DNA from: Candidatus Thorarchaeota archaeon
GTDB taxonomy: Archaea; Asgardarchaeota; Thorarchaeia; Thorarchaeales; Thorarchaeaceae
Assembly (NCBI GenBank): GCA_003345595.1
Contig: PRDI01000039.1
Coordinates: forward strand, 10,875 to 74,874
DNA: 64,000 nucleotides
Direction: 5' to 3'
Shown here: one piece after another, positions 58,465 through 62,748 of the stretch
How the letters are laid out: every line of letters starts with the position of its first letter
Numbering within the stretch: the first letter of the stretch is position 1
Translations under genes and position numbers: made by a program
The notes under the pieces: generated by a model
Database searches by the model: none
Seen by the model: the letters and a program-made list of their open reading frames with translations, nothing else
Told to the model about the DNA's origin: nothing

Positions 58465-59886
58465 CTAGGTTATGCCACGCTGGTTTCCTCTGGTCTTCCT
58501 TCTGAGCGCGAGCCTGAAACGATCGAATCCCTGACCTAGTCGGGTCTTCCTTGGCCAGAAGGGCTCTATCTCATCAAAGCCGAAGACATCCCAATAGAGA
58601 GGGCAGGCACCAGTGCAGTATGCGAAGTGCGTACAAGCTTTGCAGCCCTCTGTGGCAAACTCCTTGGCCCTCCAGAATCGGGCGGCTCTCGACTGCCAGA
58701 CTTTCTGGAAGCCCTCAGTTAGTAGATTACCAACGGGGTCGCTGAAGCTTGAGCAGGGCAGCACATTTCCTTCTGAGTCTACGGAGAGAAGCCCGTCACA
58801 ACATGCACAGCTCTTGGCCCCCAGACCATGAGATATCGGATTGAAGATGCAGACCGGTGTCGGGGCATACCACACGAACTGTACGCCCTTTCTGTTTGCC
58901 AACCTTCTTACTCGTTCCACAATCTCCCCAATCTCCGAATAGGTCACCATAAGCTCCTCGCACAGCTTTGCCGCGGTCCCAGTATAGATGACCATGTTCA
59001 TGCTGAAGTAGCTCAGTCCTAGATCGTCTGCGTGAAAGGCGACCAAGTCGTCAAGCTTGGCAACATTGGGCCGGCATATGGTCGTGTTACAGTGGGTGTA
59101 AATGCTTGTTGTCCTTAGGTTCTTGATGCCAGTCACGGTCTGCTCGAAAGCGCCAGGCACTCCCACGATGTAGTCATGTGTGGTTGCGTCAGGTCCCTCG
59201 ATTGAAACCTGAGCGCTGTTGAGTCCAGCCTGCTCAAGTCTATTCACGTATTCTTTGTCTGCGCACTTTCGACCATTGGTTATTAGATTCATACGTAGAC
59301 CCTTGGACCTGCCATACGATATCAAGTCGAACAGGTCGTCACGTAGGGTCGGTTCACCACCTGTGAAGGAAAGACTTGGGACATGAGCATCATCAGCAAT
59401 GATGTCTATCACACGCTTGACCTGGTCAGTTGTCATCTCTCCTGCAATGCGGTATGGAGAATATGCATAGCAGAAACGGCACCTGTTGTTGCATCTGTAG
59501 GTGATGGCGATCTCGCCCAAGACAGGGTACCTGATTTCCGCCGAACCAAAAGGTATGATCTTGGCCGTCCTGTAAGCCAACAGATTCTGATTCCCTGTTG
59601 TCATGTTCCGCAGGTCTTCAGCGAAGGCTGCAAGGTCGTTGAGTACGACCTGCCTGTCTGCCCCGAAAGTGGAAACGAAATGATCTACTACCTCTTCGGG
59701 CTCGTGGCCCTCAAGAAGCATCCTCAGCATCGTCATTCCTGTGTCATTGAGATGCATGACCTTGTTCGGCCTGAGAATAAGCAGACTATCCTCTGGCCGC
59801 GCGAAGAAGAAGTCTTTGACCTCTTTCATGAATACTGAGACCCATCCGAGGTCATCCAGCGTGTAGTCGTAGCTTGGGGCTTCCAT
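58465..59886 (-). CDS. Radical SAM/SPASM peptide maturase with an N-terminal PqqD (RRE) domain
   Basis: HLNDTG..ML...........F..DRQVVLNDL (PqqD-like), CNNRCRFC, FTGGEPTLR, TNG, SPASM CACC...GNVLPC...CKACTHFAYCTGACP. Confidence 0.93.
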   Translation of the reverse strand: MEAPSYDYTLDDLGWVSVFMKEVKDFFFARPEDSLLILRPNKVMHLNDTGMTMLRMLLEGHEPEEVVDHFVSTFGADRQVVLNDLAAFAEDLRNMTTGNQNLLAYRTAKIIPFGSAEIRYPVLGEIAITYRCNNRCRFCYAYSPYRIAGEMTTDQVKRVIDIIADDAHVPSLSFTGGEPTLRDDLFDLISYGRSKGLRMNLITNGRKCADKEYVNRLEQAGLNSAQVSIEGPDATTHDYIVGVPGAFEQTVTGIKNLRTTSIYTHCNTTICRPNVAKLDDLVAFHADDLGLSYFSMNMVIYTGTAAKLCEELMVTYSEIGEIVERVRRLANRKGVQFVWYAPTPVCIFNPISHGLGAKSCACCDGLLSVDSEGNVLPCSSFSDPVGNLLTEGFQKVWQSRAARFWRAKEFATEGCKACTHFAYCTGACPLYWDVFGFDEIEPFWPRKTRLGQGFDRFRLALRRKTRGNQRGIT

Positions 59887-60063
59887 GACACTGATGCCCG
59901 ATGCGGCGATTCCACTTTAAGCGTTCTGAAAGGACATCTGGCGAGTATTGTTGCGAGACTTGCCAGTCGAAACGCACGGTCTATCGCCGGCGAGAGCGAG
60001 GACCTGAAATGCTTATCAGGTCCCACCTCAAGCACTACACAGCATCATGTTGGAGAGAACATC

Positions 60064-60459
60064 ATGAGTTCGAGTGAAACCAAACTACCCTACGGCGCCA
60101 TAACTGGCAAGAAGCTCATCATGCACTTCAGTGCATTTGACATAGACTTGCCCGTTATTGCTTCTGGGCTGAGGGAGAGAATGGACGTTCTACGCGAGAT
60201 GGATGTGGCCTTCGCTGGCTTCGGCACAGAGATTCCAGCCAATATGAGCGAGCAGACGCCAGCTTCGGTCAAGTGCTTCTTCGAGTATGTTGGCAAAGAG
60301 GCCGATCCGACTGTCATATTGAAGAGAGCATATCACCTAGTCTGGAGTGGGATGATCGACAGCTTCCCAGATCTCGAGGAGTGGGCGGCGGCCAAAGCAG
60401 ACCTGTCAAACCTGACTCTCGCTCAGGCGGAAGTGCTGCGCGCTCGTAAGGGCGAGTAG
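60064..60459 (+). CDS. Hypothetical protein
   Basis: 131-aa ORF with ATG and GGAG RBS, between the rSAM and the Cys/His-tail gene. Confidence 0.75.
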   Translation: MSSSETKLPYGAITGKKLIMHFSAFDIDLPVIASGLRERMDVLREMDVAFAGFGTEIPANMSEQTPASVKCFFEYVGKEADPTVILKRAYHLVWSGMIDSFPDLEEWAAAKADLSNLTLAQAEVLRARKGE

Positions 60460-60564
60460 TACGTTCTGGATGTTGTAGGATCTGTTAATGAACCAACATC
60501 TGTTGCCTAGCGTCGGAATGTGAATTCATTGCGGGTAATGTAATGCGGATACTAAAACAGTGAA

Positions 60565-62748
60565 GTGGCTGACATGCGGGGAGGAGAGCTTCGTCATCTT
60601 GCGCTCAAGGGCTGTTTCGTTGTCGTCTTGGCTGCAACACTGGCGATACCTGCCTGTGCCGGAGTGGGCACACCGAGTCAGAGTGCCACGTTCAACGTCG
60701 ATAGTATCTATGTGGATACGGCGGTGTTGCTGAATGGCAGAATCAATGTCACCTACTGGATGACATTCTCTGTCCTCAGCGGTTCAATAGGCGGGTTTGA
60801 CCTACTAGGTATAGAAGAAGCGAACGTGCCCGATCCAAATCGGGCCTACGCAGAGGTCGGAGCAAACAGATACAGCCTCCTCGTAACACCGAAATCGACC
60901 GGGTATGGGCTCGATTGGACGCCTCGCACTCAAGAAGGTGAAACTGTTACGGTGGTCTTCGGCTACTTCAGTACAAGCCGAGTGATCGAGAAGACGACTG
61001 GTACGTTTGTCCTTGAGGGTTCAGGCCAATCCATAACTCAAGACATGGGTGTACTGAACTGGGCACCTGTCCAATGGGACAGGCAAGTTGACGTTGAGAA
61101 CGTGCGTGTTATCTATCCGATTCAGATGCAGCCTTCTTGGATCACTCCTGAGGGAGGTGTAACAACGCAGGGGGCTGACTACGCAGGCTATGTTGTGGAC
61201 TACCGCCAAGGTGTATGGGATAGCGGCAACAACATGAGGATCTATAATGAGGACCATCTTTTGGCCTACCCATCGGATCCAGCCGCTCCCCAAAGAAACT
61301 TCAGTGCCAGTCTGACCGCCTCCCCTGCGTCAGCCTACGATCATCTGAGAGTCTTCCAGTATACGAATTGGTCGTTCTATGAACCGTACGTGCAGGCCGG
61401 GGCTCTTGGATACAGCACGGCGGAGAATATCAATGCGGCTGCCGGGGTAGAATTCGAAGTCAATCTGAAGGTCTTCAATATCGGTGATGCCGAGCTGCAC
61501 GATGTCACAATCACTCTTGCGGTTCCGGAGAACTTGACCCTCACTTCTGGCCAGGTATCTACGTACCTCGGTACCCTCTATGGCGGCGAGAACTACTATC
61601 TCAGCTACAGCTTTGTCGCGGCCAATGTGCCAGCAATCTTGCCTGTCACGTTCCAAGTCAGTTCAACTGATTTGAACAGCACAAAATGGCTGACCTTCAC
61701 AGTGAACGTCTACGTGCAGGAATACATACCGCCACTGATTCCCCCTGGCCTCCTGGCTCTCGCATTTGGGAGCGTAGTGTTCGTTGTGGTCGCCTACTTC
61801 GGCTACAAGAGAATCGTGAGTCCCTATGGGGCGAAGTGGACTGCTGACGAAACCACGGGTGTGTATCAGAAACCCGAGATTGCCATTCAGACGTTTGGTA
61901 CTCCCGGGACCGTGGCAGAGCTCGATCCCGTCGAGTCTGCATTCTTTGTCAGCACTACTAGAGAGAAGCTCGTGTCAATGATTCTCATGTCATGCGTCCA
62001 CAAGGGCGCTGTGAGAGTCTTGTCAGTGGACCCGCTCAAACTGACCGCGACTGGTCTTCAGTTCGAGGACCTCACCTACTATGAGCAGATGTTTGTCGAC
62101 GCGATTGTCGATGACGAGCTTGATTCAGACAAGATTGATGAGCTCGTTGAGCGCATTGCCGACGAGGTCCAGAAGAAGTCCTGGCAGTCTGACTTCGAAG
62201 CAACCAAGAAGAACCATGATGAAATGGTTGAGGGCGCATGGAGAGAGCTGGAGGCAAACCCGACTCTTGATAGTCGCACTGACTACTATTTCAGCGGGCA
62301 GTATCACGGTTGGGCATGGTATTGGCTCTACTTGAGTCCAGACCATGACACACACATTCATGATGCATTCTCGCATGCTGGCGGTTCCATCGCTCCTCCT
62401 CAGGTTCCTCAATGGTTCAGTGATTTGTCGAATGCAACTGGAAATGTCATTTCAGGTGTGGGTCGCGCCGTCGGCGATGTTGCGGCTACGACCGCGAAGA
62501 TAATCGGCAACGTGACAAACACGATAGGCAAGGTGATGGAGAACGTGGCCAACATCATCCGTGAGCCATTGAAGCCGATTCTCGAAGGCACGAGCAGGTG
62601 TGTTACGCACGATGCGTGCCATTCCGCCTGCGTTTCGCACGATGCATGCCATAGCGCGTGTCATAGCGCCTGCCACAGCGCTTGCGTCTGTCATAGTGCT
62701 TGTCACTCAGCTTGTCATTCAGCGTGTGTTTCAGGAGGCTTCCGATAG
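60565..62748 (+). CDS. DUF2207-like single-pass membrane protein with an Ig (CARDB/DUF11-like) domain and a C-terminal (CHSA)n Cys/His repeat tail
   Basis: Signal peptide; [75 protein letters not shown]; 11-Cys tail. Confidence 0.85.
   Translation: [727 protein letters not shown]
62599..62745 (+). repeat. Protein-level CHSA repeat (7 CHSA units plus 2 CVxHDA units)
   Basis: [49 protein letters not shown], encoded with diverged synonymous codons. Confidence 0.95.

Follow-up and report, generated by a model that had tools for sequence, protein, structure and literature searches.

We analysed a 64,000-nt window of Candidatus Thorarchaeota contig PRDI01000039.1 (assembly GCA_003345595.1, positions 10,875 to 74,874). 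In this window, the gene of a radical S-adenosylmethionine (SAM) enzyme of 473 aa (58465-59886, minus strand), which carries a recognition element for peptides that are made on ribosomes and modified after translation (RiPPs) and a SPASM domain, is found close to the gene of a 727-aa DUF2207-like membrane protein with a Cys- and His-rich tail (60565-62748, plus strand; the start could also be the ATG at 60574). The enzyme gene is divergent from a gene of a 131-aa protein (60064-60459, plus strand), the intergenic spacer being 177 bp, and the gene of the tail-bearing protein comes next. A preliminary description of this locus had proposed that the enzyme cross-links the tail. The three open reading frames (ORFs), their strands and the domains assigned to the enzyme agree with that description, and the 727-aa protein does end exactly in the quoted tail; the suggested origin, a probable Asgard archaeon, also agrees with the closest loci, which come from Candidatus Thorarchaeota and Promethearchaeota.

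The enzyme comprises a PqqD-like RiPP recognition element (RRE) at residues 37-94 (59605-59778, minus strand; PF05402, E = 3.5e-9, exceeding the gathering score), a Radical_SAM domain at residues 128-268 (PF04055, E = 6e-24) and a SPASM domain at residues 363-419 (PF13186, E = 4e-7). In the alignment of 64 homologs, no variation was observed at the three Cys of the CxxxCxxC cluster motif (C132, C136 and C139; 59470-59493, minus strand) or at the seven Cys of the SPASM region (346, 360, 378, 415, 418, 424 and 428, including the CX2CX5CX3C pattern; 58603-58851, minus strand). The RRE columns are conserved too, with N47 being invariant and R30, D33, I37, P40, L46 and D84 conserved in at least 90% of the homologs. 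The CxxxCxxC motif, the SPASM domain and the RRE that mark the general class of RRE-dependent radical SAM/SPASM maturases are thus present. The enzyme is 68-76% identical to the Thorarchaeota orthologs and 41-48% identical to the bacterial ones. The nearest solved structures, all of low similarity, are those of SkfB (6efn, E = 3e-17), PqqE and CteB (5wgg, E = 6.6e-8), and a PADLOC search yielded generic viperin-core matches and nothing more specific.

For the tail-bearing protein, the AlphaFold2 (AF2) model built with 99 homologs (pLDDT, the predicted score of the local distance difference test, 82.9) and the hydropathy profile point to the following architecture (all coordinates on the plus strand). 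An N-terminal signal or anchor helix (residues 8-32; 60586-60660) is followed by a beta-rich ectodomain (residues 42-385; 60688-61719; pLDDT > 93), by one transmembrane (TM) helix with Lys and Arg residues directly after it (residues 394-417; 61744-61815), and by a cytoplasmic domain consisting of winged-helix-like and helical parts (residues 455-603; 61927-62373). The latter domain, which when folded alone has pLDDT 88 and a predicted template modelling score of 0.84, defines the family, being the part matched in most of the distant homologs. There are only two hydrophobic segments, at approximately 8-38 and 387-419, and none beyond residue 430. As the TM helix is immediately followed by Lys and Arg and no later segment is hydrophobic, the tail is predicted to face the cytoplasm, where it would be reachable by the enzyme, which has no signal sequence. 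The term single-pass, used in the preliminary description, is thus to be understood as one TM helix at 394-417 in addition to the signal or anchor helix at the N-terminus, and the placement of the tail after the only TM helix and on the cytoplasmic side is borne out by both predictions.

Two elements between the membrane and the tail could serve for docking of the enzyme. The first candidate is a juxtamembrane linear motif at residues ~430-460 (Y..PEI.IETF...G.V.DL.A.EAA; 61852-61944), which contains four of the eleven near-invariant columns of the protein body (P437, L453, the invariant E457, and A459) and is the best-conserved body block in Thorarchaeota (0.80-0.85), being modelled as disordered up to residue 442. 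The alternative, leader-like element is an amphipathic helix directly preceding the tail (residues 639-676; 62479-62592; low confidence in the AF2 model); a similar amphipathic stretch sits ahead of the tail in both tail classes considered below.

The source databases name this protein and its relatives, without exception, hypothetical proteins. As for DUF2207, the protein itself does not reach the gathering score of PF09972 (DUF2207), with no match in the Pfam and hidden Markov model (HMM) searches, and among its relatives there are four precomputed PF09972 matches and a faint one, on P0016. With regard to the overall DUF2207 architecture of a signal, a beta ectodomain, a TM helix, a cytoplasmic part and a low-complexity tail, the atlas feature score is 0.87, and the structural rows lead to DUF2207 clusters at low template modelling scores (TM-scores, 0.24-0.39), those for the ectodomain being DUF2207 and CARDB-like clusters. 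In a Foldseek search with the ectodomain (60688-61719), ribophorin I/Ost1 (6s7o_E, 6ezn_A, 7oci_A) and TRAP-beta (8btk_TB) were at or near the top, with E from 1e-8 to 1e-5 and low TM-scores; since the family occurs in bacteria too, this likeness may reflect merely a shared arrangement of beta-sandwiches. The best fold match of the cytoplasmic domain (61927-62373) by two methods is GOLPH3/Vps74, a weak one (VIA Z 6.3 and 5.6 over 155-156 aligned residues; E = 0.5 in Foldseek), and the GPP34 HMM gives no match to the protein.

The proposed substrate is a (CHSA)n tail formed by the last 49 residues (62599-62745, plus strand), of which 11 are Cys and 9 are His (24% and 20%, respectively). Across 21 Thorarchaeota orthologs these residues are 98% identical at the amino acid level, the identity of codons being 74% overall and 41% at the third positions, and the repeat units within the tail are encoded by differing synonymous codons. 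The bodies of these proteins are 55-69% identical, and the block conservation in the remainder of the protein is 0.55-0.85. Judged by these comparisons, the tail is under extreme purifying selection and is the most constrained part of the protein. A 26-residue core of the tail is common to Thorarchaeota and Chloroflexota, whose protein bodies share 23-28% identity. No second tail of this kind was found among the ORFs of the 2.7-Mb genome containing the window. A (CRGL)n repeat, also with Cys at every fourth position, is contained in a stop-to-stop ORF of 65 aa in the same genome (contig C64, 44016-44078, minus strand), which is probably an off-frame reading of a DNA repeat.

Among the checks suggested in the preliminary description were two, namely, whether the homologs of the enzyme and of the tail-bearing protein co-localize, and whether the tails occur only where the enzyme is present. 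The second one was addressed in 36 genomes of the same family. A match to the tail-bearing protein was observed in 27 of them, and 26 of these 27 encode a strong ortholog of the enzyme, the tail gene of the remaining genome (G030) being cut at a contig end; in the other nine, whose completeness reaches up to 98%, both genes are missing. The two genes are nearly always divergent neighbours in this family. They also remain adjacent in three genomes that represent three other families of the phylum, one with a shorter CHSA tail (G041) and two with (Cys-Ala)n tails (G040 and G037). Among metagenomic relatives on sufficiently long contigs, a radical SAM/SPASM gene is situated beside or near the tail gene in all cases (n = 5).

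The distribution of the tail is much broader than this phylum. With one genome taken per species, at least 545 species-level genomes encode a relative of the protein with a tail matching ACH[SDG]ACH[SD]A. The archaea among them are Thorarchaeota/Promethearchaeota, Bathyarchaeia and Nitrososphaerota, and the bacteria are mostly Anaerolineae (Chloroflexota), with Spirochaetota, Armatimonadota, Sumerlaeota, Clostridia and others. We considered the flanks of the tail gene in 80 loci from this set, scoring the enzyme with an HMM based on nine seeds. An enzyme of the same clade (450-620 bits) was found in the flank in 67 of the 80 loci, and in bacteria its gene typically starts 4 nt past the stop codon of the tail gene or overlaps it. 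Among the 13 loci without a flanking enzyme, seven end at the relevant contig edge, and for five of the remaining six a search of the whole genome revealed exactly one same-clade enzyme elsewhere (679-720 bits). Both checks thus turned out in favour of a linked pair, and by co-occurrence and adjacency, as seen in the genomes, the tail-bearing protein behaves as a co-encoded dedicated substrate. In one Thorarchaeota genome, G022, approximately 6 kb with several ORFs lie between the enzyme and the tail gene (locus L046, 4804-11075), hence the pair tolerates insertions.

An exhaustive HMMER search with the cytoplasmic part as a query yielded 134 representatives at 50% identity among 1.84 billion proteins. 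Two classes are seen among the tails of these relatives, namely, (ACHS/ACHD)n and (CA)n, and at least one tail is a hybrid. The hybrid is P0027 from Promethearchaeota (locus L053, 5001-6764), in which (CHSA/CHSN)n runs into a further 15-residue stretch, so that both tail classes are joined in one protein, as is visible in its last 20 residues; in this locus a DUF2207-like protein of 446 aa is encoded between the enzyme and the tail gene. The proteins with (Cys-Ala)n tails, for which the literature search yielded no description, are also DUF2207-like, and share with the protein considered here a homologous cytoplasmic domain, the same operon logic, and an enzyme from a sister clade. Their tails differ in that Cys recurs at every second position, Asp is absent and His nearly so, and the end is rich in Gly. 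In the enzyme tree, a clade with support 97 unites the enzymes linked to (Cys-Ala)n tails, and a separate one with support 100 unites those of Thorarchaeota; the tree results from a quick search, and the placement of the outgroup is unreliable because of long branches. The enzymes of Thorarchaeota and bacteria are more similar to each other (41-48% identity) than the bodies of the tail-bearing proteins are (23-28%), and the enzyme clades follow the tail classes; both observations support the coupling of the enzyme to the tail.

Apart from Cys, the sole constant of the tails is an Ala directly before Cys, found in 90% of cases in the CH-class tails and in 73% in the (CA)n tails. The earlier suggestion of a PapB-like reading of CX3D motifs is not supported. 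Across the family, C-x(n)-D occurs with n = 0, 1, 2 and 3 in 10, 40, 43 and 19 cases, respectively; Asp is absent from four CH-class tails and from 14 of 14 CA-class tails; and the enzyme scores far below the PapB- and CteB-type cut-offs. Thus, the spacing used by PapB is not conserved in the CHSA/(CA)n family.

The sequence CHSACH can also be read as overlapping CX3CH motifs, that is, as sites of c-type haem attachment. Such attachment takes place on the outer side of the membrane; the tail, by contrast, lies behind the only TM helix, on its Lys/Arg side, and is predicted to be cytoplasmic. Moreover, the homologous (Cys-Ala)n tails, served by sister-clade enzymes, are almost free of His. We therefore give the haem reading next to no credence.

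In the (Cys-Ala)n-linked part of the family, a TylF-type methyltransferase is encoded between the tail gene and the enzyme in locus L052 (7353-8060). Two further genomes, G047 (locus L044, 6758-8848) and G057 (locus L045), encode a sister enzyme from the (Cys-Ala)n-linked clade (32-34% identity), after which a class I methyltransferase is encoded. The presence of methyltransferases in these loci suggests that methylation accompanies the radical SAM step in a part of the family.

As stated in the preliminary description, there is no free short precursor peptide nearby, and no short Cys-rich ORF is conserved near the enzyme-tail pair. The only small Cys-containing ORF of the divergent spacer (58 aa, four Cys; 59901-60077) was considered as a precursor and rejected, as it is not conserved in the orthologous loci. 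Short or tail-less database relatives proved uninformative, P0070 and P0035 being fragments at contig ends and P0085 lying on a contig of 1.6 kb.

These observations also bear on the possibility that the system is a classical RiPP pathway with an oversized precursor, in which the modified tail is cleaved from the body and then leaves it, by release or export, as a free product. The C-terminal position of the core is the one known from RiPP precursors, and cores with Cys repeats resemble SCIFF and the targets of CXXX-repeat enzymes, PF27846 matches being precomputed on bacterial relatives. If this were the case, one would expect a protease or a transporter to accompany the pair, but neither a protease nor an exporter or transporter is conserved in the 89 loci considered. 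Furthermore, a body of approximately 680 residues, with the ectodomain and the TM helix conserved and co-inherited, would be wasteful as a mere leader, and the tail is predicted to face the cytoplasm. Release of the tail as a free peptide thus seems very unlikely to us.

The accessory genes of the module differ between lineages. In Thorarchaeota, the soluble 131-aa protein, which has no match in Pfam, NCBIfam or PADLOC and belongs to no known family, is encoded between the enzyme and tail genes in 23 loci, and only there. The bacterial operons continue with genes of a soluble helical protein of ~390 aa (42 loci) and of a protein of ~170 aa that combines two TM helices with a zinc ribbon at its C-terminus (44 loci). 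No counterpart of the ~390-aa protein was found in the genome containing the window, and this protein is unrelated to the tail-bearing one (hhalign probability 0.6%); between its C-terminus and the 131-aa protein there is a weak alignment (probability 9.6%, E = 0.003). For the ~170-aa protein, the best HMM match in the genome containing the window is the product of a gene on the other side of the enzyme (57687-58421, plus strand; E = 2.2e-7, 30.4 bits, the next match having 22.8 bits), a protein of 244 aa in which two TM helices occur together with winged-helix domains and, at the C-terminus, a zinc ribbon (the helix-turn-helix and zinc ribbon parts being Pfam matches). The pairwise comparison gives E = 0.001, and the architectures are alike. 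Being both the best match in the genome and similar in architecture, the 244-aa gene is probably a fourth member of the module.

One of the accessory proteins, namely, the 131-aa protein or the bacterial ~390-aa protein, or else a small molecule, could be the actual partner modified by the enzyme, the tail-bearing protein then being only an anchor or a regulator. The conservation of the accessory genes and the sister enzymes of G047 and G057, which have no tail protein nearby, are consistent with such a role. At the same time, the accessory genes vary by lineage, whereas the pair of the tail and the enzyme is universal; the accessory proteins are not Cys-rich; and the tail is the most constrained element. 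A partner other than the tail seems to us marginally less probable still than its release.

Taken together, co-occurrence, adjacency and translational coupling in two domains of life, enzyme clades tracking the tail classes, an invariant tail and the lack of an alternative precursor support, at the level of sequence, the earlier proposal that the enzyme acts on the tail of a full-size membrane protein. Since an RRE-SPASM enzyme is inherited together with, and frequently translationally coupled to, a Cys-rich C-terminus that does not vary, and other candidate substrates are not seen, we estimate the probability that the enzyme modifies the tail while the latter stays on the membrane protein at approximately 0.65. 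The data show the domain architectures, the predicted topology, the co-occurrence and adjacency of the genes and the selection on the tail; from these we infer the role of the tail as a substrate, the tethering of the product and the type of chemistry.

Several observations weigh against this interpretation. The enzyme reaches no NCBIfam equivalog in the profile search, its scores being 154 bits for AhbD (cut-off 500), 86.1 for PapB (NF047865; cut-off 340), 22.7 for TIGR04115 (cut-off 350) and 59.5 for TIGR04463 (cut-off 525), and the HxsC, ACGX and StsB cut-offs are not reached either (102 bits for StsB). As the enzyme is far below every curated family cut-off, the reaction type cannot be read from homology. 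In the AF2 model, the pLDDT of the tail is below 50. With the queries used, no tail protein was found in G047 and G057, which have the sister enzyme. Finally, in one genome (G011, locus L078, 3791-4537) the enzyme gene stops after residue 238 and no SPASM part was found, and the adjacent tail-bearing protein of 660 aa has a perfect tail; the truncation could be due to recent decay or to an assembly error.

The invariance of the tail could also reflect a metal site. Repeats of Cys and His with Cys-X-Cys and CX3C spacings are classic metal ligands. The tail might then be an unmodified site for a metal or an iron-sulfur cluster, metallothionein-like or cluster-carrying, with the enzyme taking clusters, sulfur or electrons from it or modifying another substrate of the pathway. 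The composition of the tail (24% Cys and 20% His) and its regular CX3C spacing, replaced by CXC in relatives, would suit such a site, whose invariance is to be expected if it is well defined, and the Crp genes of Methanococcus voltae have been reported to be up-regulated on pyrite, which ties them to the supply of iron and sulfur (PMC13692751). However, the enzyme retains a conserved RRE, that is, a peptide-docking domain; translational coupling and enzyme clades following the tail class are better suited to a pair of an enzyme and its substrate; and in metal-binding tails the length and the number of repeats are usually variable, which does not hold for the CHSA tail. We consider an unmodified metal site unlikely, and metal binding and cross-linking of the tail may coexist.

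If the enzyme does modify the tethered tail, the following sequence of events may be envisaged. The 727-aa protein would be inserted into the membrane with its beta-rich ectodomain outside and the winged-helix/helical domain and the Cys/His tail in the cytoplasm. The cytoplasmic enzyme would then dock by its RRE on the juxtamembrane motif or on the amphipathic helix before the tail, and would modify the tail Cys by 5'-deoxyadenosyl radical chemistry with the use of two auxiliary clusters. Thioether formation is the commonest Cys-directed reaction among RRE-radical SAM-SPASM enzymes, and by this analogy the modifications would probably be thioether cross-links. The likeliest products would be intramolecular thioethers of the sactionine or ranthionine type, in which the sulfur of Cys is joined to a carbon atom of a residue close by. 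Through such cross-links, the repeat would become a structure both rigid and defined, still attached to the protein.

The nearest tested analogue is the CrpC/CrpA pair of Methanococcus voltae (TIGR04463), where CrpC, an RRE-radical SAM-SPASM enzyme, acts on an entire Cys-rich protein, CrpA, and installs ranthionine-type thioethers at motifs that include ACAGM and CAVD (Dieter et al. 2026, PMC13692751). Both systems have an archaeal enzyme of this type and a whole Cys-rich protein encoded alongside it, with the Cys in C-terminal repeats. For CrpC/CrpA, the thioethers were observed by mass spectrometry and the docking extends beyond a short leader (PMC13692751). CrpA is soluble and has ten repeats of a 17-residue motif and, at the N-terminus, a leader-like domain; the substrate proposed here is, unlike CrpA, the 49-residue end of a membrane protein of 727 aa.

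Other known systems share fewer features with the one considered here. The CXXX-repeat system (TIGR04114/TIGR04115, PF27846) is a bioinformatic family of small peptides, similar in having Cys at every fourth residue and a SPASM maturase. Approximately 14 bacterial relatives of the tail-bearing protein carry a precomputed PF27846 match, while a search of the tail with TIGR04114 (cut-off 20 bits) gave no match with E values allowed up to 10. The ranthipeptide systems SCIFF/CteB and PapA/PapB and the sactipeptide enzymes SkfB, AlbA and StsB also combine an RRE, radical SAM and SPASM or twitch domains with Cys-rich cores, but their substrates are short free peptides rather than a 727-aa membrane protein. 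QhpC, the target of QhpD, belongs to quinohemoprotein amine dehydrogenase; it is a small subunit located in the periplasm, with a quinone cofactor and Cys-Asp/Glu links. The similarity to our proposal is that a radical SAM enzyme pre-forms triple intra-peptidyl cross-links within a protein substrate and that these are kept as a structural feature (PMC7876137).

As for the surroundings of the module, tandem paralogs of RIO-type kinases are encoded at 55316-56116 and 55983-56933 (PF01163, E ~ 1e-33 each); the two ORFs overlap by ~130 nt, and the second one probably starts later. The stretch is present in wetland metagenomes. In one wetland metatranscriptome library, contigs lie on three of the four genes, namely, those of the 244-aa and 131-aa proteins and the beginning of the tail gene, and none lies on the enzyme gene; such contigs are weak evidence and can show neither transcription nor its absence.

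Radical SAM maturases have been studied almost wholly on short peptides, whole-protein thioethers installed by an enzyme being described for the soluble archaeal CrpA (2026) and, earlier, for QhpC. That a radical SAM enzyme can cross-link an entire protein has thus already been published, as a principle, for QhpD/QhpC and CrpC/CrpA; on the system consisting of the enzyme and the CHSA-tailed membrane protein, our literature search yielded no paper. If our interpretation is true, radical SAM chemistry would be extended to the cytoplasmic tail of a full-size membrane protein, in a form that is not rare, the CHSA variant occurring in at least 545 species-level genomes from both prokaryotic domains. 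The invariant 49-residue substrate, easily expressed, would be a clean test case for the action of an RRE enzyme on a folded protein and for the role of a Cys/His ladder at the membrane. The module would also provide the first functional handle on the large uncharacterized class of DUF2207-like proteins. The chances seem to us evenly balanced that a receptor-like membrane protein receives on its cytoplasmic tail, from a dedicated radical SAM enzyme, a set of permanent and defined cross-links or some other structure derived from Cys, and that this constitutes a widespread, previously undescribed modification of whole membrane proteins in Asgard archaea and many anaerobic bacteria, in which the Cys/His ladder would serve as a redox, metal or signalling output.

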